From NCBI GenBank assembly GCA_012026655.1, contig JAAILG010001240.1:1-64000 (forward strand): a stretch of 64,000 nucleotides of DNA. Direction: 5' to 3'. The translations under genes and the position numbers were made by a program. The notes under the pieces were generated by a model. That model had not been told where the DNA came from. It ran no database searches and saw only the letters and a program-made list of their open reading frames with translations. This DNA is from Hydrolagus affinis. Lineage: Eukaryota. Each line of letters begins with the position of its first letter. Position 1 is the first letter of the stretch. Shown here piece by piece: positions 4,996-57,782 of the stretch.

Positions 4996-5226
4996 TTACT
5001 TCTTGTAAATATCAATAAGCGATCGCACACGGAGGGCCTTGGTCAGCTCAGAGATGCTGGTCGGGCACCAAGGATAAAAGGTCACAAGCTTTGTTTTTTC
5101 AAGCATGAGAAATCCATTGTCATCAAATCTTCCTGAGACGTCCCCGACATCCAGCCAGACATAGGGGGCAATACTTGTACTGTGCAGGGTAACAGTAAAC
5201 CTTTCACCGTGCTGACTGATGGTAGC
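4996..5226 (-). CDS. MANBA: MANBA exon 17 (terminal coding exon)
   Basis: atttag|ATISQHGERFTVTLHSTSIAPYVWLDVGDVSGRFDDNGFLMLEKTKLVTFYPWCPTSISELTKALRVRSLIDIYKK-TAA. Confidence 0.96.
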   Translation of the reverse strand, partial: ATISQHGERFTVTLHSTSIAPYVWLDVGDVSGRFDDNGFLMLEKTKLVTFYPWCPTSISELTKALRVRSLIDIYKK

Positions 5227-5428
5227 CTAAATAATGGGGGGAAAAGGACATGGCTGTAACATCTCTTTAGAATCTAATCAAAGGCAACACTTACTAAAGC
5301 AGAGCTGCCAACCTTCGAGGCAGATTTTCAGGAAGATTATAGTAATTTTTCAGGAAGGTTTGTTACATTTTCAGGAAGGAATTTTGTTATTTTGCCTCTA
5401 CCACTTCAGTATCAGCCAATAGTTAAGC

Positions 5429-5586
5429 CAGGGCTCGACATTAACAGGCATCCAGGCAGCCTGGACACCTGAATTTTGGCGTTGGGCGCAAAACAAAGTT
5501 ATGATCTACAACACACTCGGGCACCTTGAAAAAAATCTGAGGGTCCAGTTGGGCCCCCGAAAATAAAGCTTTAGTATGGAGCACTG
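5429..5586. mobile_element. Degenerate hAT-like MITE
   Basis: cagggctcgacattaa ... ttagtatggagcactg imperfect TIRs; flanks gttaagc / ggtaagc resemble a decayed TSD. Confidence 0.45.
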
Positions 5587-5660
5587 GGTAAGCTGACCTT
5601 GTATTACTCTCTTTGGAGCTCCCATGCACGTGTGCGTATACTACAGTACAGCAGTGCAGC

Positions 5661-5722
5661 AGACACACAGACACACACACACACACACAGACACACACAC
5701 ACACACACAGAGACACACACAC
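5661..5722 (+). repeat. Imperfect (CA)n microsatellite
   Basis: agacacacagacacacacacacacacacagacacacacacacacacacagagacacacacac. Confidence 0.9.
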
Positions 5723-5769
5723 TGCATAATGCACACACCACTCCAGGAGGCTGAGCACCATAGTGTCAC

Positions 5770-5798
5770 TGCAGCTCTGCCGCCAGCAGAGGGCGCTG
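5770..5798 (+). promoter_or_regulatory. CTCF binding site (core plus upstream TGCAG module)
   Basis: ctGCAGctctgccgCCAGCAGAGGGCGCtg: near-perfect CCASYAGRKGGCRS core at 5783-5796. Confidence 0.75.
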
Positions 5799-5966
5799 TG
5801 AGAGCAGCGGCGGCGGCGAGGGTTTGGCAGACATCAGTGTGTGGGGAGGGGGTGGCTGACGCGATGACGTTTACCAGTGGCTGGCGGGGGTGACGCTGAC
5901 GCCGGTCGGGACGCGCTGACGTGTGAACGCTGCCGGCGAGGGAGCGGGAAGACAAGACGTCGAGTG

Positions 5967-6194
5967 ACAAAACACAAAATACTACAGATGCTGGGAATCT
6001 GAAAACAAAAACTGCTGGGGAAACTCAGCAGGTCAGGCAGCATCCATGGAGAAAGGAAAAAGAGTCAACGTTTCGGGTCTACAACCCTTCGTCAGGACTC
6101 AACTCTGACCAAGGGTTGCAGACCCAAAACGTTGACTCTTTTTCCTTTCTCCATGGATGCTGCCTGACCTGTTGAGTTTCCCCAGCAACTTTTG
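5967..6194. mobile_element. Palindromic Penelope-like-element (pLTR-derived) insertion with 13-bp TSD
   Basis: ~85-bp inverted arms (about 6010-6095 and 6105-6190) around a 9-nt loop; flanked by aagacgtcgagtg (5954-5966) and aagatgtcgagtg (6195-6207); carries the gatgctgcctgacctgctgagt motif and a hammerhead core. Confidence 0.7.
6062..6100 (-). ncRNA. Minimal (Penelope-type) hammerhead ribozyme
   Basis: Minus strand GAGUC-CUGACGA-A-GGGU UGUAG ACCC-GAAA-CG-UU^-GACUC: stem I GAGUC/GACUC, CUGANGA and GAAA cores, 4-bp stem II, palindromic CG stem III, GUU cleavage triplet. Confidence 0.7.
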
Positions 6195-7465
6195 AAGATG
6201 TCGAGTGGTTTCTACCTGCGGTACATGTAGTAACTATACGGGTGGTGCAAAGGGGGATTTAGCTTAAATTATGAAATGGCAACAAATCTGAAGTTATTTA
6301 TCTGGGATCGGGAGGGGGGGGAAGGGAGCGTGTAAAAGCAGAAGGCTTCCGCAAAAAACAGGAGGGTTGGCAGCTCTGCTAATGACATAGTTTTCAAAAG
6401 AAAGTGTAAGCTTCTGGTCTCTGCTGGGCACCTCGCAGATATATTCACATAACTGAACATCCTGTATTTGTAATTCCACATATGAATATGTATCGAAGCA
6501 CTTGACAGAAGAGCTTCAAAATTCTGCAGCAGCCATCAGCAGCCCCTTGTGCCTCCTTTACCACGTTTTTGCTCATTTCTTAACAAAATATATTTATTAC
6601 CTTGTCAACACACTCAGATACTAATATGAAAGTAAGCATCTTAGTAAACTGATGGGTGTTAACCAGTGCCGTACGATAATCAGGTAATGTGACTTGTGAA
6701 CTTGTGAATTCATTTAGGTGAATTGTCGGAATTGTTTTGATCTACTTGGAAATGAGGAGGTTCAAAGTAGACCCATGTTTTAAGCGAACGTACACTCTAG
6801 TGAGAAGCTGAATAATGATTCATCCTGTACCATAAATTTAGAATAGATCCTGAAATTGAGAAGTGATTCACTTGAAGTGGATCTCAGTGGGCCATGTTGT
6901 AGAACGTGTGTTGCCCAAGCTGAATGGCATTAAGAAATTTCAAACTTTAAAAAGACTTAATTTTTTTTAAAAAAAACCTCAGGACTATTACAAGATAAAA
7001 TGCAGACTATTCCATGACTGAAGAATGCCAGGTTTTATCATGTGTGTAGATAAAGATTAGCACACAAACAGAAATGAGAGAAGAACTGAGTACGTGATAC
7101 AAAAAGTATTTCACACAATGAATAGAATATTGGATTCTGTCCTTCCCCCTTGGATGTTGGATAATGTTAGCAGACTGTATTTAAAGTAAGATTGACAGTA
7201 GTTTACATGATAATGTAGTACAGTTATTCAGACTTGTATGAGTATCACCCTGACATTGTAAAGTACCCACACAATTTACATGATGATTAACTAAATGTAA
7301 AATGGGATACCAACCAGTAGAGGGCTCTATGTAATACTGTCTATTAAATTCAGTACGTTCAATAATTGTTTAACGCATTCAGTGGTCCTCATTTTGGCAC
7401 ATTACAATGAAATACTGTGAAGACTTTATAGTAGCAATGATGGATGAGATAATACATGTACTCAC

Positions 7466-7720
7466 ATTAATCTTGGGGGGTTTCAAAGTTGAAACGTGCT
7501 TTAAAGAAGAAAGAAAGTAGTGATTGATAGGTCCATATTTCTGGCCATTAACGTCAAAGTAAAACGTTACTACACAGCTCAACCGACTGCAACCACATTG
7601 AATCATCAGATCATCAGTGACTTTCTTGTAGATAGGGGAAGCGCTTCCTGCCTTAAGGGTAAAGGACTCAGTTGTGTGAACACATGCTGGGGCCATTTCA
7701 CTCCACTGGTAGATTTTAAT
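7466..7720 (-). CDS. MANBA: MANBA exon 16 (255 nt)
   Basis: ttgcag|IKIYQWSEMAPACVHTTESFTLKAGSASPIYKK...GPINHYFLSSLKHVSTLKPPKIN|gtgagt. Confidence 0.93.
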
Positions 7721-16538: not shown

Positions 16539-17235
16539 TAATAATAATAATAATCCTTGTATTTGATATAGCGCTATTCACATCTTCTAGAAGTCTCAAA
16601 GCGCTTCACAGAATAAACTGTAAAGTAAATTGATTGTATATTTGTGGGCGAAATGCAGCAATGTGCAGCAGCACACAGCAGTGTCCCACAAACAATCATG
16701 AATTGAAATGACCATTTTTTTTTAGGGATTATTATTAAGTGCGTGGAGTAGGGTCCATCGATATGGAAATTTTCCAATATCGATGTATCGATGGGCTCAT
16801 ATCGATATATATCAATATCGCCGGGTTTCTTTATTCTGTGTAAGTGCGCGCATTCCAATGTGCGCGCATTCCGATATGCGCGCGCATTCCATGCTCTCGA
16901 CCTAAGAGGTTTGCAATGCTGGCGACAAGGTAAGTTGAAAAAGTTCGCATTGTACTGATATGACCGATATATCGATATATCGCCGGACACGATCTACCGA
17001 TATTTGCGATATACCAATTTTTTTTATACTGAATTTTTCGATATACCGATATATTTAAATTTCCAATATCGGCATATCAATATGAAACATTATACCGATA
17101 TAACCGATATATTGATATATTGCTGGACACTAGCATGGAGTAAAGAAATTTGTCCAAGGTTTTGACCTGCCTGGGAATCGAACACTGGTCTCACACTTGT
17201 AAGGCGAGTGCTCTAACCACTGAGCTACAGGACTA
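16539..17235 (-). mobile_element. Deu-domain SINE split by hAT insertion
   Basis: Tail at 16539, core to 16748, head resumes 17141-17235 (aaccactgagctacaggact). Confidence 0.85.
16749..17132. mobile_element. Non-autonomous hAT element with CGATAT subterminal repeats, nested in a SINE
   Basis: TIRs tagggtccatcgatat / atattgctggacacta; 8-bp TSD gcgtggag (16741-16748) / gcatggag (17133-17140); the host SINE resumes exactly after the TSD. Confidence 0.85.
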
Positions 17236-21230: not shown

Positions 21231-21550
21231 TTTTAAAAACACAAAAAAAATTCATAACTGTGAAGTATCCAGCAACAATAAAAACAATTAATAATATCTC
21301 AATAAACATATTTTTCATGAACAAAGCAAGCTCCATTCTGAGGCTACTTGTATTTGCAGCATTTTCCCACTTAAAAGTTTTATTTGCAGACAAATTTAGT
21401 AATGTTAATGCAGCTGAGATTTTTTTTAAATGCTGAAAAAAATCTAAATCATGAGTTCCTTCAACCATAAACTCTTTCTAAATGCATATTTGTAAATAAT
21501 AGTGGCGGCTGATTGTTACCACATAGTCAAGAATGTTTATTTTTGCTTCA
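21231..21550 (+). repeat. ~320-bp direct copy of NFKB1 3' UTR segment 2407-2726
   Basis: By-eye alignment: about 8 substitutions and one 3-bp indel; the copy runs into the assembly gap. Confidence 0.9.
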
Positions 21551-21923: not shown

Positions 21924-24756
21924 CTGAAAGGTAACATGAAAATGAACAAGTCAAAACTGATGCACCACTGATCACAGTTTAAATAAACATTTGACAGTTA
22001 TACAAGCTCAAGGTTGTAAAGTTAAAGTTGGCAGCATTTTACATGCATGCTCTGTAATGAGTTATTGTAATTTGATACAAATATTTTAGTATAGTGTAAT
22101 TTAATAGTATCTTAAAATGAAGAACAAGCAAAATAATAGAAAGGCGTTGAGATGAGGTTCATTAAATAACTGCCTCCCTTATTCCTCTGCCAACGGTGGT
22201 AGGAGTTTAAGTTATCTATTACATTTTTATTCAATCTGGGATTGGATCACAAAAATTTAATTTTTGCCTTTCTCAACAACCAAACACTAAATCACAAATG
22301 CAAACCCAGGTTAATTCTCTGAAATTAATTAATCCATCTATAAACGTAGAGCAATTGGTAAAATAATAGCTTTTCCTACATTTAACACAAGAATTACATG
22401 ATCCAATACATTCTGCACCATTAAGTGTTCGAATGCATTTCAAAACCTAAGCAGATTAGTCCTTCCAAAGATTTTGTTCACTTTTGGATTAGAATTCCCA
22501 GTATATTAAGGCTCTTTTTCCCACATGGTTGACAGAGCACATTATCATCATTCTGCCACATGCAGAATCTTCTTGGCAACATGCAGGCTTGAAACATACT
22601 CAGAGCCACTCTGCACGTAGAAAATTGATATTGCAAATTGCAGGGTCTTTTCTGAATATCCTTAAAGAATTAATCTACAGCAGAAGGTGTTTTTCATTAT
22701 ACAATAGCCAGTCCTGATCCTCTGTGAGTTCAGCGTCACTGTGAATAAATTGGCTGCACTACAGTTAATCTGTAAAATAATTTCCAGCCGTTAGTCACAT
22801 ACAAATGAGTATCTTGGGACAGCCTCCCATGAAAGACGTTGTATAAATGTAAATTTATATTGTATTGTACGCGCAAGTAACATATAATAATTTTTTATCT
22901 GGAAATCATAACCCAGGGTTGCTAATTAGCAATATTTTGTTTAGAACCAGCCCTGCTATTAATAATTCACCCAATAATATAAATACTCCATAATATAAAA
23001 CCGATTATAATTCAAGAACATAAGAAATAGGAGAAATACGAGAAACTTTTGCCATTTCAGGTTGCAGACTACAGTGAGCGAGTGAAGCTTCTGTAATGTT
23101 TAAACCTTAATGAAACTAGGTGGTTGAAGTCTCCCTTTGCAAATGAATTATTTACAATTTTTAAATAAGAGTTTTACTTAAATTGGATAATGTTGAAAAC
23201 ATTTGTACACACTTGATAAAACTTGTACTGCTAAGTGTAAAAACATTGTTTAGCGTATATCAACAATTTATGGATGTGATTTCCATATGTATGTGCATGC
23301 AATTGTGGAGCTCACAGTTTAGTTTGAATACTCTTAAGATGGTGATGGATTTCTTCAGAAAACTGACCGAAACAAAACAGCTTTTAGAAATGGAACACGC
23401 AAATAATAGTGCAGTGATACTATACAGTGACTGGTTGTTTTGCAGCTAAATAATTTAAATTACACTGAATTCAAAACCAATTCTGGGACAACCTGGGAAG
23501 ATACATCAGTTAATTTGCTGTTCAGACGATGCTATTCTCACAAACCTAATCATTTGTATGATTATAAATTATAATGTAATAAAATGAAATATTGATTGAC
23601 TAAATAACCAAACTGAAAATGAAGTGGATTATTTGCCTTCCTTGCTTGACTATTAAATATTTTAAATAAAAAAGTGGCCTAGGCTGAATTTTCTTTTTCT
23701 AGAATCCTGATGTACTTATACTGTTTGTACCTACAAGAACAGCAGTGAATGATCAAGCATGATCTTCCCTTTTGATGATAAACCAATTAATTTAACTACA
23801 GGGACTTTTTAAATTCTATGAAATGATTAGACAATTCTACTTCTCAGAACTACTGCACAATTTAATTCTGATAGCAAGAGCCTCAGTAGCTGATTTTATA
23901 AATGCAAGTTACTGATTTTATAAATCAGAGTAATTTATGGGATATATACTTTTAAATAAAATACATAAATAGCAGCAACAACAAATTACATTTGTACAAT
24001 GCCTTTCACATTGGGAGAATGCCGCAAGACACAAAACAACGAGTGGCATAAACATGTAATACACTAAAATTCTGGAACCAATTCACTATCTGTCTTGATA
24101 ATCTAATATCTTCTTGATAACTGTGAGAGCACTAAAAACATCATTTTTTGCAGCGATTTCCAATTTTGATTACAAAGTTCACATTTACTAATTGCCTCCT
24201 TGTTAAACAATTTGTAGTTCTTTTTATACTAATAAACCTTTAAAAGTAACAGTAGAGAAAAAACTGGCAAATGATGTGACATCAATACATGAAAGCTCTT
24301 AGGAGGATTAAGATTTACCAAACAACATATCTCTGTTATAAAATATATCTCACATTGGCTTTCATATCCTCTAAGCATAATGGATTCATTTACACACGAT
24401 GAAAATTTTAATCCAGATTGTGGCATTATGGAATTAGTAGCACCATTAAAATAACAGAAAAAGGAATTTAAATGCAGCTGAACAACTGTAAATTGTTCAT
24501 CTGAATTCAGATTATAAATACAATTCACCTAAGCTTTACCCCTCTGATTTGTTTTCTCTCGTCACCCATATTCCTTCCTCCTGATTACCTGTTCTTTAGG
24601 TATCACATGTAAATCATGACCTTGGTCCAGGCAATTTATTTGGTCTTCTTTGCTGCACTCCATGAGTTTATTGTTTACCTATATTAGTAAAACCATTATT
24701 TTGAATGAACTGAGAAAATAAAATGCATTTCTGTTCTGAAGCTCAGGTGTACTCAC

Positions 24757-24843
24757 CTGATAAGTGATCTCTGCCTTTACTGAATCAACAAGGCTTTTGT
24801 CAGTTGGATAAAGAGCACAGGCAAACATGAAATCTTGCCAAAT
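24757..24843 (-). CDS. MANBA: MANBA exon 10 (87 nt)
   Basis: ttgcag|[29 protein letters not shown]|gtgagt. Confidence 0.96.
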
Positions 24844-24968
24844 CTGCAAAGTGAATAAACCAGGTGGTATTTCAGGAAGTAAAAGCACTTTTTTTCATAG
24901 CCTTGCAAGGCAGTAATATTATATTTCCATCATTCAGTCAGCAAATTGTTAATAGAACCTATTATTTA

Positions 24969-25262
24969 GAATAATAATAATGAACCTTGCATTTGAAATA
25001 GCGTTTTTCACGTCTTCTAGACGTATCAAAAGTGCATCACAGAATATACTGTAAAGTGAATTGATTGTATATTTGTGGGCGAAACGCGGCAGCTAATTGC
25101 ATTGAAATGACCAATTTATAATTGCATTTTTTTTCTTGAGGGATTATTATCAAGCGTGTCGAGTAAGGAAACCTGCCCACGGTTTCGCCCTGACCTGCCT
25201 GGAATCGAACCCAGGTCTCTCGCTTGTAGGCAAATGCTCTAACCACTGAGCTACAGGACTCC
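24969..25262 (-). mobile_element. Near full-length tRNA-derived Deu-domain SINE
   Basis: Head gagtcctgtagctcagtggttagagc...ggttcgattcc, partly deleted core, (TTA)n tail. Confidence 0.9.
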
Positions 25263-25405
25263 ACCAGATAGAGAATGAGATACTGCTACTGTTTATAGAA
25301 CGGAGTTTTTAGCAGTCTGCTCTTGTACCACTTCAAAAAATTGGTAGACTTTTCCTAAAACCCTTAATCCTGAATTCACAAAACGTTCACTTTTTAATTT
25401 CTTAC

Positions 25406-25523
25406 CATAATTCCCAATTCATCACACAGATTATAGAATTCATCTTGTTCATACACTCCTCCTCCCCAAACTCTCAGTGCATTCATATTGGCATCCACTG
25501 CTGACTGCAGCAAGTTTTGTAAA
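25406..25523 (-). CDS. MANBA: MANBA exon 9 (118 nt)
   Basis: tcacag|[39 protein letters not shown]|gtaaga. Confidence 0.96.
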
Positions 25524-26074
25524 CTGTGAATCACACAAACGAGTATAGAATGTTATAAATAATGAACCAAAGATAGAACATCCAAGAAAAAATAAAACTG
25601 TAATCGCAATACTCAGAACAATAACATCAGCTGTTATGAATTGTTCTTCATGTTTAAAAGTCCTTCTGAGCTGACGTTACTGACAGTTCATTAAATGTTT
25701 AATCAACCAAAATGTCCCTCAAACAACTTCACCATCAATTTAAAAATAGTTAAGCAAACAAAATCAAACAAAGAGTGAAAAGCATAATTCATTTTGTAAC
25801 TATTTTTAGCATATAGTACTAAATCCCTTTCAAGGTTGTTTAATTTCCCAAAAAAGGTTTGAAACAGGAACATTATTAAACTGCATTTGCAATTACTTCA
25901 TTTTAGCATTCTATTGAAACCTAATACAAATAGTTATACTCTTATGGACTATATGGATTAACAAAGGTGATGCAAAAGTAGTATTTTTACAGCAAATTAT
26001 CTTTCATGTGTTGAATATTGCTTGTCGTAGTTTGGAAAATTAAAAATGTAAATGTGCAGGATCAGTCATTGTTA

Positions 26075-26665
26075 GACAACAAAATTACACTTGTATAGCG
26101 CCTTTCACATCAGGAGGATGTCCCAACATAGCATTTCAATTTTAAGATTTGGATCTTTGCATAAAGCTTTCCAACAACACAACTTGGATTTAACGCCAAA
26201 CAGCATCTCGGAGCACTTCACAATAACGGATCCCGGGGCCGAGCCAGGGGAAGGGGGGAAAAGATGACCAAAAGCACGGTTGAAAAGAAAAGTCGTTAGG
26301 CACGACCTGAAAATAAGAATAGAGGGGGCGAGGTGAAGGGAGTGAGGAAGGGAGTTCTAAAGCCCCAGGGGGTATTGGCTGAACGCATGGCCACCAACGG
26401 GGGAATGAAGGATTCGGGGGACAAGGAGGAGACCAGACCTGATAGAGCAAAGGCAATGGGTACTGTTGTGAGGAAAGAGGAGGTCAGAGAGGTAAGGGGA
26501 TGCAGAGAAGTGGAGGGATTTGAAAACAAGAACAAGGATCGTGAAATTGATCCGCTCTGAGACAGGGAGCCAGTGCAGTCTGGTAAGGACTGGGGTAATC
26601 GGGGAGCGGAGTTTGGTTACAGTGAGAATGCGGGCGGCGGAATTTTGGATAACCTGGATTTTATT
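26075..26665 (-). mobile_element. L2 LINE 3' end(s)
   Basis: Reverse-complement similarity to 44098-44672 and direct similarity to 57783-58372. Confidence 0.85.
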
Positions 26666-27671
26666 TCCAATAAAAGAGTAAACATTTTGAAAATGACTGG
26701 AAATTACCTTGAACCTCTCTAAATTGTCTGAAATTAAATTTTATACTAGTTCAATTAAAATTATGAATGGCTAAACTGGCACCAGCCTTGCCATAGAAAC
26801 CAGAAAATTAGACATGGTCCCTCACTGGCGCCATGACAGGCAGGCTGACAGAACATCAGGGGACTGGGGGTCGCAAAGTGAAGTGGAGAAATAGAATTGG
26901 GTGTCGTCCGCATACATGTGGAAATGTACCCCATATCTGCGGATGACATCACCAAGAGCTAGATGGCTATTATGGCTAGATGTCATTCAAATATATTTAA
27001 AGCTAGAAGCACAATCTGGGTTTGATTGCAATTCATTAAATCAGAAGAATCCTCCTCATATTGCTGGATTTAGGTCTACATCAGCACTGAGGGAAGGAAT
27101 GACTGAATAACATTTCTTCACAATGTTATGGGCATAATTATTTTAAGACACATTTCTGATATAATTCTCACATCCTCGTATGACAAACATATATCTTCAT
27201 TTCATTGTTCCCCAAATTAATATTTCCATATGCTCTTTTCAGTAGTCTCTGAGCCTATTTGTCAGTCTGTGCATGGAGGCTGCCTCTGATAACAAGAATG
27301 AAGAGCATACAAAGCAGGTATTCTTCCATTTTTCTTTATTCTAAATATCTTCTACACGCTACTGAAGACTGACCAAGTTTGTCAATAATTTGATGTATAT
27401 CAGATTCAAGTTTATAAAAACACATAACAATAGCAAGTTAGCAGATCTGTGATTGTATTGGGGGCAGGAAGACAAACAGGATATCAGGCAGACAGTGTCC
27501 TTGCAGAAAATGACCTCATAACTATGAAATATGTAAAACATTTGCAAAAGTCGAACAGTACATGTGGCAGGCCAAACCCTTCAGCTAGTTTTATTAAAAG
27601 GTAATCTTAACTATTTTATTTACTGATGTTGATGAATCCATTCATTGCAATTTTCTGAACCAAAAACCTAC

Positions 27672-27823
27672 ATGTCAGATGTCACTCTGTCCTGGAAGGC
27701 ATCTGCAGGAATCCAGTTTGAACCCTTCATGAATATTGGAACTCCATTGATTTTAAAATAAAAGCTTAGTCCAGGAGATCCTATGATAGGCTCTTGTACC
27801 AACTCCACAGTCCTAAAATAGAC
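27672..27823 (-). CDS. MANBA: MANBA exon 8 (152 nt)
   Basis: caacag|[50 protein letters not shown]|gtaggt. Confidence 0.96.
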
Positions 27824-28439
27824 CTGTTGAAATCATAAGAAATTCCTTAGTCAGGCAAGCGGGTTATAAAGATTACACATTATTGAAGGTTATACATCAT
27901 TAGGATACATAAAATAACTTACATTTTCATTTCAGGCACAAGGTAGGAGGAAGCGAGTCAGAGATATTCTGGGCTAGAATTCCAGAGGAGTAGCAGAATT
28001 ACTAAAAAAAAAACTCATCTGCTGATAGTGGGCTGGATATGGTAGGGGACATGAAGCAGGCTACATCCAAGCGAGCAATCAAATCAGTTGGGTTGAAGGT
28101 TGGAGAGACTGGGTGCGAGTGAGACCATGGAGGGGATGGAAGGTGAAAACGAACATCTTGAGCCAGTAAAGTTGAGTATTATTATTATGAGGGTCTTGTC
28201 ATCTCGGTGGACAGTATCTTATCATCATCTCTATGGACCTGGGGTGGTGTGGTGGGCTGAGGTAGGGAAAGGAGTATGCAATGTACAATTGAAGTGAGGA
28301 AAAGCCAAGTGAATAAACACAGATTTAAAATTTTACAGTTGGGAGTCAAACCAGATGTGCAGGTACATTAAATCCTAGCCGTTATGCATTAAAATATGGT
28401 TATTCTTCATGGATGCTTTTCACTCAGTCACAATTATAA

Positions 28440-28740
28440 TAAATAAATGATCCTTGAATTCGATATAGCGCTTTTCACATCTTTCAGATATCCTCAAAGT
28501 GCTTCACAGAATCTAATGTAAAGTGAATTGATTGTATATTTGTGGGTGAAACACAGCAGCCGATTGTGCCCAGCAGTGTCCCACAAACAGTCATGGATTG
28601 AGTGACCAAATTATTATTTTTAAAGGATTTTAAAGGATTTTTTTAAAGCATTATTATCCCTGGAAAACCAATCTGCCAATTAATGAACAACTGAGCTCCT
28701 AGGTAAACAGCATCGTGTGGAGTAAGGAAACTTGCCCACC
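28440..28740 (-). mobile_element. Deu-domain SINE (long variant, headless)
   Basis: Same core and tail as the other copies. Confidence 0.75.
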
Positions 28741-29226
28741 ATACTCCATTGAATCAGTTTGAAACTTAGGTATCTTGTTCGACCCTCAACTGTCCTTTAA
28801 ACCCCACATCCATCACTTGACCTGTTCAGCCTCAATTCTCCCCACTCTCTGTCTGCTCTCTCTTGTTCTCTCTCAATCAATCTCGCTGTATCCCTCTCTT
28901 TGCCTTCCTGACAGACTGCAGCGACAGCTAGTATTATTCTCACTCCCCGCACTGTGGCACACCCCCCTCCGCCAGCTGAGGCTGTTGTCACGAGAGAACA
29001 TTCAACAGGGAGGCGGCAGAAGTTGGAATCTTGGAAACGGTCTTGGGATAGATAAAATCTCCCGCCGGATGCCATCCGGCCCATGGGCCGACAATTAGGC
29101 CATGCTTCTTTACAGTAAGATGCTGTGAAGCAATTTGAGACATCTCAATAATGTAAAAGGTACTGTATAAAATGTAAGGACTATTATTGTTTAAGTACAG
29201 AAATTATTTCAGTAAAAACTACTGAC

Positions 29227-29337
29227 CTTAATGAACTTTTCAACATGAAAATTTCCTTTGATTGTGAAAGTGACACTCATGTTGTAGCCAGTCTGATTGC
29301 CATGACCATTGGGCCACCAAAGATCAATAGGAGTACT
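29227..29337 (-). CDS. MANBA: MANBA exon 7 (111 nt)
   Basis: tttcag|STPIDLWWPNGHGNQTGYNMSVTFTIKGNFHVEKFIK|gtcagt. Confidence 0.95.
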
Positions 29338-30232
29338 CTGAAACACAAAGTGAAAAACATAAAATAAATCTTGAGTGACGAATATATTGTTTTTGCACAT
29401 GCTTTTGTACAGATGAGTGCATAATAGAATAGACTTTTCCAATTATGATTTAATTACAAGTGTAAATATTGTACAGAGATTTTCTACCTTTGTCCATGGA
29501 AATGTCAGTATCATCCATAATCATCCATTTCACTGGAAAACATTTTTGATTGCCGATGGGGTAGGTGAGGGGGAGAAAAATTTAATTACCACCTTCTGTT
29601 AAAAATAATAGCCCTTTCATTTATTTTCATTTAATTGCTATGCACAAATTGGGTGCCACATTCGCCAACAATAACAGACATCGCACTGTACAGTATATTC
29701 AGTCAAACACTTTGGGGGATCCTCCTGACATGAAAGGCGATACAAAATGAAAGTTTTTTTTAAATTATTTATTCTGGCATACTGCAATTTTTTTCCTATC
29801 CCAACCTGCGATCATAACCTTGTTCAGAATTTACAGTAAAATCCTGTGACATGTTTGTGAGGCATCCTCCCAACGTAATAAGGCACTGTATCAAATGCAA
29901 GGAATATTTTATTATTATTCATTTGGAGGAATTGATGACCAGAGCATTAGGAATAAACAAAAATGGGTCACTAATTTGGGAGGATTTCCTGAGGATCGGC
30001 CGATCATAAATTGCCCAATCATATCGATTGGGCTGACATGATAAATGCTTAATCTCATCAACACTATGCCAAGAATCAATTCTCTAATTGAGAAACTTAA
30101 AAGCCATAATAACCTCAGAAAGAAGATCAAGAAACCAAGGGGTGTTTCCTGCAGAAGACAGGAATTATGAAAAGTACAAATTACAAGATTTCATAACCGA
30201 AGCTGAAATCTAGTCCAATCAAATCAATCAAT

Positions 30233-30460
30233 ACTTTCATTTATATAGTGCCTTTCACGTCGAGAGGACGTCCCAAGGCGCTGTACAGTCAAGTAGGGAC
30301 AAGAGCAGGGGAGGGAGGGGGTCGGGGCAGGATGAAGGAGACTAGGAAAATTGACTGTGTATTTGTGGTTGAAACGCGGCAGTCAAATTGCGCACAGCAG
30401 TGTCCCACAAACAGTCATGGAAATGGGATTAGGGGGGAAAGATAGCAAGGGGAGGGATCC
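30233..30460 (-). mobile_element. Headless Deu-core / L2-tail hybrid repeat (copy A)
   Basis: Reverse-complement match to 37735-37968, including the C-rich segment upstream of the Deu core. Confidence 0.65.
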
Positions 30461-30941
30461 ATTAGTATATTAGTCCAATACTGAAGGAGTGATGCATTGT
30501 TAAGTGTTACAGTCCTTTGGTCCATTGAATTTAGATCCTGCCTTCAATTCTTGTGAGTCAGATGTCTTTTAAAAAAAGATTCCATGCTGTTATTTGAAAG
30601 AATATTTTTTCAGTGTTCTCGTCAATAATCTTTAGTAACCTTTCGAACACAAAATAAATAATTCACTTTACAGTATATTCTGTAAAGCTCTTTGAAACGC
30701 CTCGAAGACGAGACAAGGCGCTATACCAAATGCAAGGATTTATTCTATTTAGCATTGGTCATTCAACTAATTACATACATAGGATGTTGGTGACACAGAT
30801 CAGATGCCATTTTTACCCACATAACTATCAATACAGTTCAAAAAGTAATTCATTCTGTGAGGATTCAGATGCTTTTTATGTAGTTAGAAGCTATATCGAA
30901 CACAAATGCGTTTTAAAAATCTGAAGAAACAGACGTCTCAC

Positions 30942-31117
30942 CTTGTTTATGTTCAGCTGCACTTTACTACGGCTCTCTCCGGGCTGAAGAATTATTTTGT
31001 AGGTATCTTGTATGTGTAAGGAGAGACTGCTAACAGTCAAATCACCTGTGATCGTCTTTGAATAACTAACGTCAAAAAAGGTCTCCACCTCCACTGACCA
31101 CTTCTGGGTTTCCTGAT
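30942..31117 (-). CDS. MANBA: MANBA exon 6 (176 nt)
   Basis: ttgtag|DQETQKWSVEVETFFDVSYSKTITGDLTVSSLSLHIQDTYKIILQPGESRSKVQLNINK|gtgaga. Confidence 0.92.
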
Positions 31118-31944
31118 CTACAAATTAAGAGACACACAACTGTTACATTAAAACACTGCTGGTCTATCACTGCTTTATTTCTCATCCATTTTTCAAACGC
31201 TTTGCTTGTGCTTCAAAACAGAAGGATGAAAATCTGTTACATCAACAAAGCAGGAATAAAATGGGTCCATGTGTTGGTGAGAATATTCCAGTTTACAAGT
31301 GCTAGACATCGGACAAACAGGAGATCAGATCAAAGTTCGTGGATTGGTTTAACACAGTTTAACAGTTAAAGTATCACAAGATAATCAGTGCTGCCTGAAT
31401 GTAACTAGCAATATAACTGTTGCTTTCATCAACAAGTAAAGGTGCTGGAAAGATGTTGGGAGAGAGATTAAGTAGCAGGTGCATCCAGAAGGAGGCCAAG
31501 AATTTGTCATTTGGCACAGATTACCCTGGATTGTCATTCTTAAACTGAATGAGAATCTGAGGAGCACCAGCAGTATTGTGGGGGGGGAGGACTGCGAGTA
31601 TGAAGCCAAATGTAGGTCACAATAACAGTTCTGGTCAATGCTGCAAACCCTATTCAAATAACCTCCCTGGAGGTGAGGAACGTGTTTGAATACCTCAGTA
31701 AGAATGCAAAGGTAAAATCAAGAATATGTGGCTAAATAATAATAATATGGCACAAAATTAAAAGATCCATGACATGACTGCATCTCCCAAAAATATGGGC
31801 TGCCATGATACAGAAATTTACGACTGTACATTGTTTATTCTCAAGAGGAATATTTGCCACAACAGGATGGAGGGCAATTCAATAATTAGAATTTCAAGGC
31901 AGTGGAGGAGATGATAATTTCCTTATATTCTCAGCTACCGTTCA

Positions 31945-32258
31945 GTGAAGGATCGACTCCCAAGATCCTCAAATTCGTATTCAAATCCATTCACTCGCTG
32001 GCACCTCCCTACCTCCTCACTCCCCAAACCCTCACCCAGTGCCTCTGCTCGAGTGGTACCCGCCTCCGTCAGAGGCCATGCTTTCAACCACAACACCCAA
32101 AAACTCTGGAACACTCTCCCTCAATTCCTCTGCCTTGCCCTTCCCCTTTTTCAAGCCCCACCTTTTAAACTGTGCTTACGGCTCGGAGCCAGGCTCCGCC
32201 ACTGTTAAACACCACCCTGCATGAAGGTCGCTATATAAGTGCAACTTGTTATTGTTGT
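31945..32258 (+). mobile_element. L2 LINE 3' end
   Basis: KILKFVFKSIHSLAPPYL motif; gctatataagtgcaacttgttattgttg tail. Confidence 0.75.
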
Positions 32259-32568
32259 TATATTCGAGGATTAGAGATTATTAGGATGATATTCAATGCA
32301 AGAATGCGACATAAACTTGTGATTTATAAAATGGTTACCTCAAGATCATTAAAGGGGAAATTATTTTAAATCATTACCTGAGATACTGAAGGGCAGAGGT
32401 CCTAAGGAATATTTGCCGATGATAAATTATCCCTCATAAATCTGCTGGAGTTCTGTGAGTCAATTCAATTTCACCTACTTTAGGATTTATTTAAACATAT
32501 CAAACATAAGACATACATTCAAGGACTATGCCTAAATGAAGCAATAATATTGTATTGCCAACACACAC

Positions 32569-32692
32569 CATAAATAGAAGTTGCAGTGAGATGTGTCAGG
32601 TGGCAGACATTAAACGTTTCGATTCTTATGTCTTTCCAGATGCCTTGTGTAGGAAAGGATGGTCCCCAGTCCCAGCTGAAAGAAGACTGCTC
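32569..32692 (-). CDS. MANBA: MANBA exon 5 (124 nt)
   Basis: ttctag|[41 protein letters not shown]|gtgtgt. Confidence 0.95.
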
Positions 32693-32782
32693 CTAGAAAT
32701 TAATGTACAGAAATGAACCACATTATTATTTTACATTAAATGCTAAATTATCTAAATTATCAAAAAGTGGAATATATAATAT

Positions 32783-33095
32783 AATAATATAATCCTTGAA
32801 TTTGATATAGCGCTTTTCACATCTTCTAGACGTCTCAAAGCGCTTCACAGAATATACTGTGAAGTGAATTGTTTGTATATTTGTGGGCGAAACGCAGCAA
32901 CCAATTGCGCACAGCAGTGTCCCACAAACAGTCGTGGATTGAAATGCCAAATTTTATTGTCGGTTTTTTTTGAGGGATTATTATTATGTGTATGGAGTAA
33001 GCAAACTTGCCCGAGGTTTCGCCCTGACCTGCCTGGATTCGAACACAGGTCTCACACTGGCAAGGCGAGTTCTCTAACCACTGAGCTACAGGATT
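32783..33095 (-). mobile_element. Full-length Deu-domain SINE
   Basis: A/B-box head, tgtgggacactgctgtgcgcaattgg core, L2-like tail. Confidence 0.9.
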
Positions 33096-33625
33096 CTTTA
33101 TCTGTGAAGAAAATTATATTACATCCACTATTACTAACCATTGGAATTGTTGAAAAGGGAGTTGCCAGCAAAGCAATGGCTCTGCTTTGTGTTCTTTATC
33201 CTGTCCATTCTCCACATGAGCCCTTCCTATTAGCCCTGTTTCCACCACTATCTGATTGTATTCCCAGCCTCACCCAAAATATAGGAAATGTATTTCTACT
33301 TGCAAAGTTTCTTTTTTTTAAAAAACAACTGTGCAGGTGCTTTCAATCTGTATTGATGCCAAATGTTCTGGTATGAAAAATTACAGCAGCATTTGGTGGG
33401 CAGGGTCCAAGTAGTTGAAGCCTGCATCTATTGTAACGCTTTAAAAATAAAGCCACTTTGAAGTTAAAACATCCTGGTCCAAAGGGTTCAGATAACTGCA
33501 GGCCACTGCAGTTTGCCAAAAGTACCACACTCAACATAAATATCTGCCTATTATCAGCTTCTGTTTCAATTGCTAGTTGCATTGTCAATTTAATTTATAA
33601 ATTTCTTGGTATTAAATTTTGTGTC

Positions 33626-33920
33626 GTCCTTTGGCTCAGTGGTTAGAGCACTCGCCCTGCAAGTGACAGACTTGGGTTCGATTCCAGGCAGGGCAAAACC
33701 TTAGGCAAGTTTCCTTATGCTTGATAATCACTCAAGAAAAAAATTAATAAATTAGTCACTTCTTTCCACGACTTGTTTGTGGGATACTGATGCACGCAAT
33801 TGGCTGCATGCGTTTCACCCAAAAATATAGTCAATTAACTTTGCAGTATATTCTGTGAAGTGCTTTGAAATGTCTAAAAGATATGAAAAAGCACTACATC
33901 AAATGCAAGGATTATTATTA
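33626..33920 (+). mobile_element. Full-length Deu-domain SINE
   Basis: tggctcagtggttagagc...ggttcgattcc head, core and tail. Confidence 0.88.
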
Positions 33921-35446
33921 ATCAGTCAATTCATCCAAGTTTCCACTCAATAATGTAATTATTGTCAAAAAAAATTCTAATAGATTTATGAGGGATAAAC
34001 TATTGTAACTTCTGTTATAATTTCTCTATTAGATTTGGGCTAACCAGTCTACAGACTCGACAGATTGTTGAGTATCAGAACAATAATGTCTATCCTCCCT
34101 TTAGGAAATTCTAAAAATACTGCAAAAGCTCCTTTATTTCCTCTTTCATTCCCTTAGGATTTGGGGTCTATGAAACCTGTTTCATGTACTTTGCCTTGAT
34201 TTGACGACAAAAAATCTGAAAGCAGAAGCAAGTTAATTATCAGTTAATATGCGGTTCTTTAATGTCTACATCAGACTTTGAATGCATTTTTTTTAATTAC
34301 TCTCATAATCTGCTGCAAACATTCAATGTACACAACTAATTCTCTCTGAATCACAAAGCAATCAACAATGATAGTTAAGTCTTTGAGGTGAGCTATTAAA
34401 CCAAGTTCAGGTAGATATTAAACACTCACGGCACTATTCAGGAGAAGGGAGTTTCTCCCGGTTTCCAGGCCAGCAAATCCCCCAGACAAAATTAGTTATT
34501 CATTTCTTGGCTGTGTGCAACATTGCTGTGTACAAATTGACTACTTCCCTACAAATAGACTTACTTACAGTAAGTCCTCTGAAGCGCTTCCAGGTATTTC
34601 AATGACAAATTGTACTCTGTTAAATGCCAGCATTGATAGTATTCATTCTAATAATTGATAGTAATATTCTCAATTTATTGCAAATGTATCCATCTTGTGT
34701 AGCGAGTGATCAGTGTTTACCAGTGTTGCAAATCAACTTTAACAACATAAGTGGTAATTAAGTATGGCGTGTAGCATATTAGATTTAACAACATAAGTGG
34801 CAATTAAGTATGGGATAAGTACATAAGGATTCTGGGAAGAATGACTTGAGGGAGTTGGCGAGAGAGAGAAAGAGGGGATTGGAAAGAAGCTGGATTGTAA
34901 AATTGCAATAAAGATTGGATTGAGTCAAAATTGTGTTTTGTGGATTAAAGAACATTACAACCAGCTGCTGATTGTCAGTAACCATGATTGTAATAGTCAG
35001 AAATTAATACTGTATAGCTGCATCTTATTACAAATTTAGATACAGTACCGAAGGTCATTTTGTATTGGCAACTAGTTTTGTAGGCAAGTTTCTCTGCTTT
35101 AACCATGAATTAGTCGCAAATAGAGTCTATTTCAAGATAACAATCATTAGTTAGCCAGTTGAATTCACATATATTGAGCATTGACAAGTGGTAAAGGAAC
35201 AAATATCACATTTATTTATAACAACATCTGGTTTCTATTAATTGCCACTAAGATTTGGTAAGGCCTGCTATCAATTTCAATAAGCTGTTTTTAAATCAAA
35301 GTAGATGATTAAAAGTAAAATCTACAGCTTGATATTTTACTCAAGGTTGCCAAATGAGGTTGACTGGGGAGTAGCTGTTACAATTTGTTTAAACAATGCT
35401 TTGATTTTTTTTAAAGACTTGAGATTTGCACATTCATCACTTACAT

Positions 35447-35748
35447 GAGTCTTATAGCTCAGTGGTCAGAGCACTCACCTCACAAATGAGGGACCTGGGT
35501 TTAATTCCAGGTAGGCGAAACCTTGGGCAGGTTTCCAGACGCCAAATAATAATCCCTCCCAAAAAAATTGGTCATTTCAATCCACAACTGTTTGTGGGAC
35601 ACTGCTGTGTGCAATTGGCTGCCGCACTTTGCCCACAAATATACAATCAATTCACTTTACAGTATATTCTGGTGAAGCACTTTGAGACGTCTAGAAGTCA
35701 TGAAAAGCACTATATCAAATGCAAGGATTATTATTACTATTATTATTA
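35447..35748 (+). mobile_element. Full-length Deu-domain SINE
   Basis: Head, core, (TTA)n tail. Confidence 0.88.
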
Positions 35749-52479: not shown

Positions 52480-52890
52480 ACTCAGCGCCGCGCTCACGCA
52501 CCTGGATGAGCCGCTGTTGGAGCAGGGCGCTGTGCACATTGCCGGGTACCGTGGCGCCGCTCAGGCCCAGGCTGCCATTGCCATTGCGGATGTGCCAGCC
52601 CTGCCCCCGCAGGCTGTACCCGCACAGCCCGAGGCCGGGCGACGCCGACATGAACAGCCCGAGAAACCACAACAACCGAGCGACCATACTCAATTCCCCG
52701 CCGCGCCTGCGCACAGCCTCTAGTCCGCAACCGCCACTGCGCGTGCCAGCGGCCGGCAGAATCGCGCTTGCGCACAGCAACAGCGGCCGGCCAGACTACG
52801 CCTGCGCACAGCCCCCACCAACCAGATGGGGTTGACGCCCCATTGGGCGGGTTTGTGCTGTTAGTGCGTTAAAATAACTTTGGGCGGGTT
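52480..52890 (-). promoter_or_regulatory. MANBA CpG-island promoter with three NRF1-like sites, CCAAT box and two GC boxes
   Basis: CpG-dense. cgcgcctgcgca 52702-52713, cgcgcttgcgca 52763-52774, acgcctgcgca 52798-52808; CCAAT (minus strand) 52842-52846; GGGCGG 52845-52850 and 52882-52887. Confidence 0.75.
52502..52687 (-). CDS. MANBA: MANBA exon 1 (signal peptide + N-terminus)
   Basis: ATG at 52687; MVARLLWFLGLFMSASPGLGLCGYSLRGQGWHIRNGNGSLGLSGATVPGNVHSALLQQRLIQ|gtgcgt donor; lies in a CpG island. Confidence 0.9.
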
Positions 52891-53497
52891 TACAAAAATA
52901 TATACGGTACTGTATATTCTTTTAATGTAAACCTGTAAAACTTTGTTTGTTTGTTTCCCTCCCCCCCCCCCACCCTTTGAAAGCCCCGAGCCACCTCAGC
53001 CACCCTGCAGCCGACACGGTGTATTGGGCAAAAGCAGAAATGACTGGGAGCACTCAGCAGGTCAGGCAGCATCTATGGAGAGACGTTATATTGGGCTACT
53101 TTTGGGGCTGGTGTTTGGTTGGACATTGGGCTATTTATACACCTCTCTGTCTGTGTCTCCTCTGGAGGGCAGAAGGGTGTCTGTCGCTCTGAGACGGGAG
53201 GCGCTCTGAGACGCCGTCCGGCGTGGAGGGAGCTATATTGCTTCCATTTGCCGTCAACCCTCTCCTGCAGACGGGGGTCCCCACTGAGAGGCGTGGGAGG
53301 AGCGAGTGAGCAAACGCACAGCAGATCAACATCAGAGACATGGAGAGGGAGGGGGCACAAACAGGGGAACAAAATAACACTGCAATAAATTACACCAGGA
53401 AGGGGCAAAACACAACTACAAGGGTCTCTTACAGCACGCCACTGGGAGGACGAGCTAATGTAGTTTAGTGAGAATGGAAATAATGGGGAACAATATA

Positions 53498-55299: not shown

Positions 55300-55592
55300 G
55301 GAGTCCTGTAGCTCAGTGGATAGAGCACCCGCCTTACAAGCGAGAAATCTGGGTTCATTTCCCAGCCAGGGTGAAACATTGGGCAAGTTTCCATACTTCA
55401 CACAGCTGATAATAATCCCTCAAAAAAAATTGGTCATTTCAATCCACAGCTGTTTGTGGGACACTGCTGTGCGTATTTGGCTGCCGCATTTCGCCCATAA
55501 TCAATTCACTTTGCAGTATATTCTGTGAAGTGCTTTGAGACATTGATAAGATGTGAAAAGCGCTATATCAAATCCAAGGATTATTATTATTA
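55300..55592 (+). mobile_element. Full-length Deu-domain SINE
   Basis: ggagtcctgtagctcagtgg head, core, (TTA)n tail. Confidence 0.88.
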
Positions 55593-57782
55593 TTTAAAGT
55601 GTGAATATACAGAGCGCAATACCAAATGCAAATATTATTATTATTTCCCCACTCATCCATTTTAAATAAGTGGGGTTTCCTTGGAGGCAAACTGACATGC
55701 CTGAATATTAATTCATTGTCCTCTCTCCATGGATGCTGCCTGACCTGCTGTGTTTCCAATGGCTTGTGTTTATATCAGATTTTCAGCATGTCCAATACTG
55801 TACCTTTTGTTTAAAATGTACAGACAAATCATTTTACAGTATATTTCATGAAGCACTTTGAGATATCTTGAAGATATGATAAGGCTCTATTTCAATGCGG
55901 GGATTATTATTATGTAGCAGCTTTTTTGCAGAAAAAGTTAAAAAGTTGAATTGGATCGTCTCCAGAAAGCAGAAAAAACGTCCTCCGCTTTTCAAATAGT
56001 ACACAAAATATATAGTGAGCCAGAGTACAGATTTCACTATCTTAATAAATATTTTTAGAATATCATTTTTCTGATATTGATGTAAAGTTGTATATGGTGA
56101 ACAGCAAGCATAAGTCAAATTATTCCACTTAAAAATAATCACTTCATTATTTAGAGAATTCCTGGTGTAAACCTACATCAAAACCAGTCATCACGCTTTT
56201 CTAAAAACAGGAAGCTTGAATATAATGAAAATTAAAGAACAATTTTGCTTATCATTTCTAGAACCAGAATTTTGGAAGTTTTTTTAAAATTAGTTTAAAT
56301 GATTTCCTTAACAAAAAAGTGGGAAAGGTTTAAACTGAGGAAGAAAAGTCAAGGAGCAAATTCATAATTTTGTGGTTAATAGTAAAACTATTACAAATGT
56401 AGTTCCTAAATCAGAACTGTAATTTTCAAAGTTAAAAGTATTTGTAATGCCCAATTACACTGATACTACTGCTTTGTGCCAATAGAAATGATTATCTCAT
56501 TCTATAATTTAGCCAATATTTATGTGCTAATTAACCAGAAGTTTGTTTCACAACACTAATATTCAGATATAATTGGACATCAATCCAAGTCTCCAGTTTC
56601 AATTAGATGGCTAGTTGGCATTATAAATAACACAACCATTCAAATGTTACAACATCATAAAAAGAGCAATCTATCCAAGGACTACTTTACTACATATATG
56701 TTCCTCTAAACTTCAATACAGTTATACTGTACCCTGTAAGGTATTTAATTTAAGAGCAATCTTCAAATCCAGGCAAATATTGCTAATTCTACTCACAAGA
56801 GATGGCCTTTCAGAGCATCATTCATCAGTTTATGTGTAGTTTGCAAAACTCAACCACCCTTTCAGGTGACATTAGTACATCTAAATGGTCTGACTTTCTC
56901 GCCTTGCTGTCTATATCTGAAAGCACCAATTGGTGTCAGATTTCTCATTAAACATCTCGACTTTTTTTTCGAAGAGGCACAGCTTATCTACGTAATCATT
57001 ATGAAGTCCTCTGAGCACATTGGGAGATTAGACTACTTCCTTCCCTATGTACTGCTGCTAAGATCACAACAGCTTTGATGACAAACCATTCAGTCTTCCA
57101 TTTCCAGCATACCAACTTTTTCTCCTGCATTACATCCCCTGGGTCTCTACACCCGTTCTGGTAATGTTCACGCTGTTGAAGGCCTGGGTGCCTCATAATT
57201 TTATGCAGTACTCCAGGTGCATCCTGATCAATTTAATAAGGGCCTCCAAGACTTTGGGCAGAGGTACGAATTCTGAATACAATTCTGCAGTAAGTGTAGT
57301 CCAGAATTCTAATTACCACTTTTTCCACCTCACGTGGACTTGGTCAGAAAGTAACACCTGTAACATTTTCAATTCTCTCTTTGAAAATTTCTATCCTACC
57401 CATGTATGGCCACTACTGAAATAATCATCACTTGCATTTACATAACTCAGATCAGAAAGGATAGAGACATGCAGTGCTCAACAGTGGCTGCACTCATCAG
57501 GCAAGAGCGAGAGGTGTCGGTAGGCACTTATACTTTATGCTGAGTAGGTTTATACTGTACAACCATTCCCCATAGCTCATCCCTCAGGATCAATGCAGTC
57601 CCTAAATTCTACTGTAAAAATTATGTACACAATGGTTCAGTGCTTTGGATTTAATAATGTGGTCATCAAACCACTTTCCTGTTTTATTATTGCTTTACCG
57701 TTTGAACGGTGAATTTGAATGGTGAGCCACTTCCAACGTATTCTTTGGCAAATTCTATCCCACTTTAGAATCAACTTCTCTA

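Follow-up and report, generated by a model that had tools for sequence, protein, structure and literature searches.

A fold-back pair of repeat ends in MANBA intron 16, likely a Penelope-like element remnant, carries a hammerhead motif predicted to be locked by its own upstream arm

Introduction

Is a self-cleaving RNA motif in an intron of MANBA a device of the gene that carries it, or a passenger of the retroelement that brought it there? This question is raised by a short palindromic insert in the 64-kb stretch of DNA analysed here (the window). The original prediction, made from the letters of the window, described the insert as Penelope-derived and its intact hammerhead ribozyme as possibly locked by an antisense arm, and offered as readings a self-silenced ribozyme cassette, a substrate for ADAR or small-RNA pathways, or a hairpin mobilised as a unit.

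It has been described that a typical insertion of a Penelope-like element (PLE) is 5'-truncated, often with an adjoining inverted copy which is also 5'-truncated, and has a tail of 30-40 bp at one end (Craig et al., 2021, PMC8557442). Such units sit inside target-site duplications (TSDs) of 8-10 bp (Arkhipova et al., 2013, PMC3846280), and their inverted repeats differ in size copy by copy (Schostak et al., 2008, PMC2377424). The enzyme of an Anolis PLE cuts and extends both DNA strands in vitro, and reverse transcription starts from two internal sites whose spacing corresponds to the tail; the hammerhead of this element needs the protein, is abolished by the change G8C and is not required for insertion in vitro, and no RNA-seq reads were reported to end at its cut site (Frangieh et al., 2024, PMC11167929). 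Minimal hammerhead ribozymes (min-HHRs) of PLEs number thousands per genome and are mostly single, some forming opposite-strand pairs 100-700 bp apart, and for the single min-HHR no cleavage was found in vitro (Cervera & De la Peña, 2014, PMC4209133).

Results

Position of the insert in MANBA and in an older transposon

MANBA is encoded on the minus strand, where tblastn with the Callorhinchus milii protein placed 16 exons, a set from which three short matches with E values of 0.29-9.1 are left out. With exon 1, found near 52,700 in the list of open reading frames, this makes a gene of 17 exons, and therefore the insert lies in its last intron, intron 16, between 7460 and about 5238 (Table 1). 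The translation of exon 7460-7720 had a single match, the C. milii beta-mannosidase (85% identity), and gave an E value of 1e-13 against mouse beta-mannosidase 6DDT. At this level of identity, the DNA probably comes from a chimaera distinct from C. milii. The tblastn exons together with exon 1 bear out the earlier placement of the motif in intron 16 on the MANBA sense strand.

Convergent to MANBA are, at about 700-2155 on the plus strand, the last coding exons of a gene which we take to be NFKB1 from its death-domain end and CDSGVETS motif; read-through of this gene would cross the insert on the strand of the dead hammerhead. Elsewhere in the window, the segments 2414-2726 and 21235-21550 form a 316-bp direct duplication (96.5% identity), the second copy of which lies beside an N gap in a MANBA intron and may be an assembly artefact or a copied piece of 3' UTR. 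Five tRNA-like matches (17163-17233, 25190-25260, 33625-33696, 35451-35515 and 55308-55366) stand at the head of a dispersed family of repeats which are likely SINEs derived from tRNA.

The insert landed inside an older transposon-like element at 5300-6378, a nesting absent from the original prediction. In one DNA run of a related organism (X5), contig depth was 22,000-34,000 over 6206-6409 versus 25-70 in the unique intron, and contig pieces stop at 6378-6379, the right end of this host element. A candidate 6-bp target duplication flanks it (5294-5299 and 6379-6384, 5/6 match). Contigs of organisms A and B run from this element into unique intron, which places it at the orthologous site of both; around the insert itself, their contigs break in the repeats. 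A smaller element with imperfect terminal inverted repeats of ~15 bp is nested in it at 5429-5586.

Table 1. Coordinates of the insert, its parts and its surroundings in the window
Feature	Position	Strand	Basis
MANBA exon 17, coding part, downstream of insert	4999..5238	-	tblastn
Host element: multi-copy, non-coding, DNA transposon-like, ~16-bp terminal inverted repeats	5300..6378	.	termini; contig depth
Left TSD copy	5954..5966	+	sequence comparison; empty-site joint 5926->6195 in X5 contig
One-sided tail, 39 bp, probable element 3' end (PLE 'tail')	5967..6005	-	outside inverted repeat; loose contig ends at 5967
Main copy, 134 nt of element end from hammerhead to tail, 5'-truncated, MANBA sense	5967..6100	-	longer family copies run past 6099
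Minimal type I hammerhead, core intact, GUU site	6062..6100	-	features match Cervera & De la Peña (2014); without Rfam match
Fold-back centre, 9 nt; 6100-6104 unlike family upstream sequence	6096..6104	.	loose-end consensus behind 6099
Second copy: inverted, tail-less, 5'-truncated, 90 nt, begins at C3 of dead hammerhead	6105..6194	+	
Right TSD copy	6195..6207	+	sequence comparison; same X5 empty-site joint
MANBA exon 16, upstream of insert	7460..7720	-	translation match, tblastn

Anatomy of the insert and its target-site duplication

The insert comprises 228 bp (5967-6194) enclosed by 13-bp direct repeats which are identical at 12 of 13 positions, the lone mismatch being a CpG>TpG change; by a rough estimate, identity of at least 12/13 at fixed boundaries has a chance of ~1e-6. 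One X5 contig represents an empty site, joining 5926 to 6195 via 20 letters that match the left flank in the window and containing a single 13-mer, which confirms the TSD. An X5 piece of the same depth as this contig has 10 differences over 6195-6310, and thus the empty site likely belongs to a paralogous copy of the host transposon. Insert length and duplication were as originally predicted, and this one-copy empty site bears them out.

The inverted arms, 6006-6095 and 6105-6194, are real as well, but each measures 90 nt rather than the ~85 bp first given; they are complementary at 84/90 positions (93%) and separated by a 9-nt spacer. Outside of them a tail of 39 bp (5967-6005), which the original prediction had overlooked, occurs on one side only. 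The only open frame of the insert has 32 aa. Longer family copies run on past 6099 with other sequence, and therefore the present copy is 5'-truncated at stem I of the hammerhead.

The drift between the arms amounts to four clean substitutions and one probable small deletion. When compared with the majority letters of loose contig ends, all four clean substitutions fall in the mirror arm (two-sided chance 0.125), a bias that agrees weakly with constraint acting on the intact arm. Moreover, both arms share letters unlike the family majority (6061-6062, 6080 and 6083 among others), indicating that one template served for both. A single template would suit a fold-back made after insertion, by local inversion-duplication of one retrocopy, but shared letters are equally expected from one RNA copied twice, and the TSD encloses both arms exactly, which implies that the inversion was present at the time of target duplication. 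Taken together with the related proposal that the module came from a hammerhead retroposon outside the PLEs, for instance a retrozyme, the direct tandem units of which (bioRxiv 10.64898/2026.07.22.740005) are absent here, a late fold-back is the most improbable of the explanations that we weighed.

The hammerhead motif and its mirror

Read on the minus strand, the motif consists of stem I (6100-6096/6066-6062), the C3-A9 stretch with the CUGANGA box (6095-6089), a single extra A at 6088 between A9 and 10.1, and stem II (6087-6084/6078-6075), which has 4 bp plus a wobble and in which G6087-C6075 forms the G10.1-C11.1 pair. These are followed by the GAAA box (G12-A15.1) at 6074-6071, by a self-complementary ACGU at 6071-6068 that replaces stem III (palindromic 15.2-16.2, no stable stem III), and by the UH of the core at 6068-6067, with the predicted GUU cut between 6067 and 6066. 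When folded alone, the motif is predicted to form stems I and II with pair probabilities of 0.97 and 0.98, respectively. Stems I and II, the core and the GUU site are therefore as first written, but the hammerhead is complete as a minimal motif only.

A descriptor scan of both strands of the window gave this one match, and at least one match occurred in 1/200 dinucleotide shuffles. The comparison with hammerhead models lent no support: Rfam searches at the gathering cut-off and at E<=10 retrieved no hammerhead family among 5, 12 and 2 matches. The miRNA-precursor families that matched the insert scored far below their gathering thresholds and reflect the hairpin shape; we set them aside.

The mirror motif on the plus strand carries G8>C at 6110 and G12>A at 6126, in keeping with the earlier statement that its core is inactivated, and is also missing the 5' strand of stem I. 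With a drift of 2.4-3.3% per arm, the 13 core positions of the sense motif would stay intact under neutrality with a probability of 0.64-0.73, and thus its intact core needs no selection. No second intact hammerhead which could serve as dimer partner was found within the 64-kb window.

Copies of the end repeat in related sequencing runs

Among 17 sequencing runs listed, 13 contained part of the stretch, with no RNA run among these 13. Four of the 17 (X5, X6 and X11, DNA; X14, RNA) were aligned to 2,031 bp of it at 88% likeness. The pieces listed are 24 of 30,726, and the joints listed are 15 of 92. In unique DNA, X11 differed from the window at 0, 0 and 2 positions in pieces of 200, 251 and 228 bases, and X5 and X6 differed by ~1-2.4%. 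Contigs aligned were 15,912 of 13.5 M in X5, 12,567 of 7.1 M in X6 and 1,777 of 1.7 M in X11, with depth in the DNA runs concentrated on 5934-6205; summed contig depth is no copy number and supports 'highly repeated' only. The end repeat is very abundant in the relatives, with more than 10,000 contigs per well-covered relative. Loose contig ends at 5967 were present in 139, 167 and 33 contigs of the three DNA runs with a flank agreement of 0.40-0.42, which indicates that the element end coincides with the inner edge of the left TSD and recurs at unrelated sites.

Most of the joints listed (12 of 15, from a total of 92) link the left to the right arm, by 12 different position pairs; copies with exactly the present centre are not listed as joints, and some joints may be placement artefacts. 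Half of these (6/12) leave the left arm at 6085-6099, near the centre of the present copy. This clustering, together with the very high copy number of the end module and the report that the terminal repeats of PLEs are enough for mobilisation in trans (PMC3846280), would fit a non-autonomous hairpin element whose whole 228-bp palindrome is transcribed and retrotransposed by PLE enzymes. However, no two of the 12 joints are alike, loose ends at 6095 and 6099 rank with the best-supported ones, 6100-6104 is crossed by none of the 24 pieces listed (of 30,726), and a hairpin of approximately -170 kcal/mol would presumably be a poor template for reverse transcription. Mobilisation as a unit, as the original prediction had suggested, is thus not favoured in view of the different fold-back centres of other listed copies, and we regard it as very unlikely.

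Several further observations concern the family. In 3 of the 14 left-to-right joints listed for other copies, the second arm starts at 6131-6134, at most 3 bases from the mirror cut site (6133/6134); such starts would be consistent with cDNAs that stop where an RNA was cleaved, and are too few to judge. Older fragments of the end repeat with 80-87% identity and without a hammerhead occur in the window at 55713-55789 (+) and 53031-53081 (-), the latter ~300 bp upstream of the first exon of MANBA. Contigs from metagenomes, viruses and genomes, when scanned for the pattern, yielded 6, 0 and 3 loci; all nine matched over only 21-23 bases, lie in DNA of 60-69% GC and are attributable to chance.

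Predicted folding of the insert and RNA data

The minus-strand insert is predicted to fold with -175.1 kcal/mol (z -20.5), which none of 200 shuffles equalled. Forcing the hammerhead fold would cost 38-51 kcal/mol with the upstream arm present versus 3.6 without it, and the predicted pair probabilities of the hammerhead stems then drop below 1e-18, in support of the earlier idea that the upstream arm locks the motif. By position 6085, the catalytic 5' half would already be paired to the antisense arm, before the GAAA box is transcribed. The claim that the antisense arm is transcribed first is true in MANBA sense, but it says little about this orientation: the arms lie head to head, and for that reason the antisense arm comes first on either strand. 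With the predicted locking and no dimer partner in the window, the hammerhead would most likely be inert in MANBA pre-mRNA. Two copies of the motif, when co-folded freely, were predicted to form a duplex that is not catalytic; this result was set aside.

The RNA run, X14, is a poly(A) library of organism A, which is not the species of the window, and ~27% of it was read. MANBA exon 16 had a depth of 1.1-5.5 in one orientation, and bins of unique intron reached at most 1.7. Of the 4,829 reads aligned, 87% run on into other sequence, and the two orientations are similar over 6002-6069, with depths of 1008 and 1112. No pile-up of RNA starts or ends was seen anywhere on the stretch in X14, a poly(A) run of another species which cannot speak for this locus. 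Family-wide A>G/T>C places numbered 21/13 in the X14 RNA and 18/9 in DNA of the same organism, a comparison that says nothing for or against editing.

Two groups of X14 reads, 336 at 5969 and 567 at 6014, share single foreign flanks (agreement 0.73 and 0.76), which suggests that the end repeat is part of one or two well-expressed transcripts in organism A. Near the start of the tail, at 5999 (-), there is an acceptor-like site in MANBA sense, with a branch-like CTGAC, a pyrimidine run and CAG, ~760 nt upstream of the authentic acceptor of exon 17; it could be the end of an intron of the element or a cryptic site. By pyrimidine count, it is 5th among the 65 YAG sites of the intron. A role in a cryptic exon was considered, and the 15 joints listed include no X14 joint at 5999.

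It is plausible that the insert hairpin could serve as a substrate for ADAR or small-RNA pathways. In Xenopus, palindromic repeats undergo heavy editing, and abundant hyper-editing, 81% of it in repeats, was described for the elephant shark (PMC5625713). With a near-perfect duplex of ~88 bp predicted on the transcribed strand, and with its four clean substitutions all in the mirror arm, the insert might on these grounds be thought a host-relevant RNA element that adjusts the processing of MANBA pre-mRNA, whether as a substrate for ADAR or small-RNA pathways or as a ribozyme released under certain conditions. We hold this to be highly improbable. The intact core is expected neutrally, the insert is one of many thousand similar ends, the 64 kb offer no partner motif, and no pile-up of RNA ends appeared in X14, though that library is not one of this species; moreover, incidental editing by itself would not be a function.

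Discussion

In this study, we show that the palindromic insert of MANBA intron 16 is real, well above chance and ordinary, in that it likely joins the known insertion footprints of PLEs. The explanation that we favour, with a probability of roughly 0.85, is that it represents a fold-back pair of repeat ends with a tail and a TSD, likely a remnant of a PLE that was dead on arrival, and that its hammerhead is predicted never to fold in MANBA pre-mRNA. The target was a single 13-mer inside the older DNA transposon. Going by published work on PLEs, the GIY-YIG endonuclease of the element would have made a staggered cut there, and the reverse transcriptase would have made two copies of the end-repeat RNA, with the outer internal start site giving the tailed arm of 134 nt and the inner one the tail-less arm of 90 nt. 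Both cDNAs would have halted at the upstream edge of the hammerhead and been joined head to head, with repair then filling the 13-bp duplication. Afterwards the arms drifted, and the mirror core was broken. When MANBA is transcribed, the antisense arm is predicted to pair with the catalytic 5' half while the 3' half has yet to be made, and the resulting hairpin of ~88 bp would be spliced out with the intron; given that the window has no second intact motif for dimerisation, cleavage should be negligible. The hammerhead is thus likely to be a retroelement passenger, not a host device. The reading as a self-silenced ribozyme cassette is not supported, as an inverted truncated copy is a known by-product of PLE insertion and opposite-strand hammerhead pairs have already been reported.

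A wider scenario goes further than this reconstruction. Both arms might stop at the upstream hammerhead edge since a short RNA that begins at this edge is copied twice, from both nicked strands, by a dimeric PLE enzyme. The fold-back would gag the ribozyme, and intact sense copies in introns would survive selection mainly as fold-backs, leaving thousands of near-perfect ~90-bp hairpins in chimaera pre-mRNAs as a major class of ADAR substrates. We consider this scenario unlikely.

The single locus matters little, as it is likely an inert retroelement stump in an intron. Its value lies in being a clean, minimal footprint of PLE integration, with an empty site, a tail on one arm and two arms that both end at the hammerhead. 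With thousands of copies of this kind, cartilaginous fish could serve to test the priming and termination of PLE reverse transcription, of which little is understood so far, and whether A-to-I editing is fed by self-folding ends of PLEs.

The assignment to PLEs is likely and is based on architecture (tail, inverted truncated copy and TSD) and on motif features, not on a library match; the Penelope-like origin first proposed is in this sense supported. As in EN+ PLE units (PMC3846280; PMC8557442; PMC2377424), there is a 3' end common to many sites, a truncated main copy, a shorter inverted and 5'-truncated copy, a one-sided tail (39 bp here) and an enclosing short TSD. Unlike those units, the insert consists of only two end pieces without an ORF. 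Its TSD of 13 bp compares with 8-10 bp in the rotifer examples cited (PMC3846280). The GC-rich target of the insert also differs from them and counts against the PLE reading, the Anolis enzyme favouring AT-rich DNA (PMC11167929); most family flanks at 5967 look AT-rich.

No match was found in one supplementary file of PMC8557442 or in two of the three of PMC4209133, and the text of the latter and the same two files yielded no shark or chimaera family. By title and start of abstract, no paper describing the end-repeat family was found, which may well be catalogued in Repbase or Dfam, and a full-text search with a 14-base motif of the element returned, by their titles, only unrelated human topics.

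The motif resembles the min-HHRs of PLEs (PMC4209133) in its type I core (CUGANGA/GAAA/UH), the extra nucleotide after A9, the G10.1-C11.1 pair, the palindromic 15.2-16.2, the short stem I and the lack of a stable stem III, and pairing on opposite strands is known for them. Stem II has 4 bp plus a wobble here versus 7-8 bp in the Schistosoma min-HHR families, and the two motifs abut, in contrast to the spaced opposite-strand pairs described in the same source. Poseidon PAc of Anolis carolinensis (PMC11167929) likewise has a hammerhead upstream of two ends separated by the tail, and its killing change G8C is the one present in the mirror arm here. In PAc, the ORF starts in stem II and reverse transcription starts 111-118 nt into the ORF, whereas the ends here are found ~60 and 99 nt beyond the cut site, without an evident ORF.

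Animal non-LTR retrozymes, which have been reported in one chondrichthyan, are likewise short, non-coding and PLE-derived with a type I hammerhead (bioRxiv 10.64898/2026.07.22.740005). However, they form direct tandem arrays of two or more successive units that have complete hammerheads, whereas the insert is a single inverted pair with one intact and one dead motif. Lastly, a palindromic Xenopus repeat of Harbinger that serves as ADAR substrate (Porath et al., 2017, PMC5625713) is similar in being a self-folding sequence of ~200 bp that forms tight double-stranded RNA without a neighbour. It differs in being a DNA transposon with a palindromic consensus, for which editing has been shown, whereas in the present family the palindrome was apparently built per insertion.
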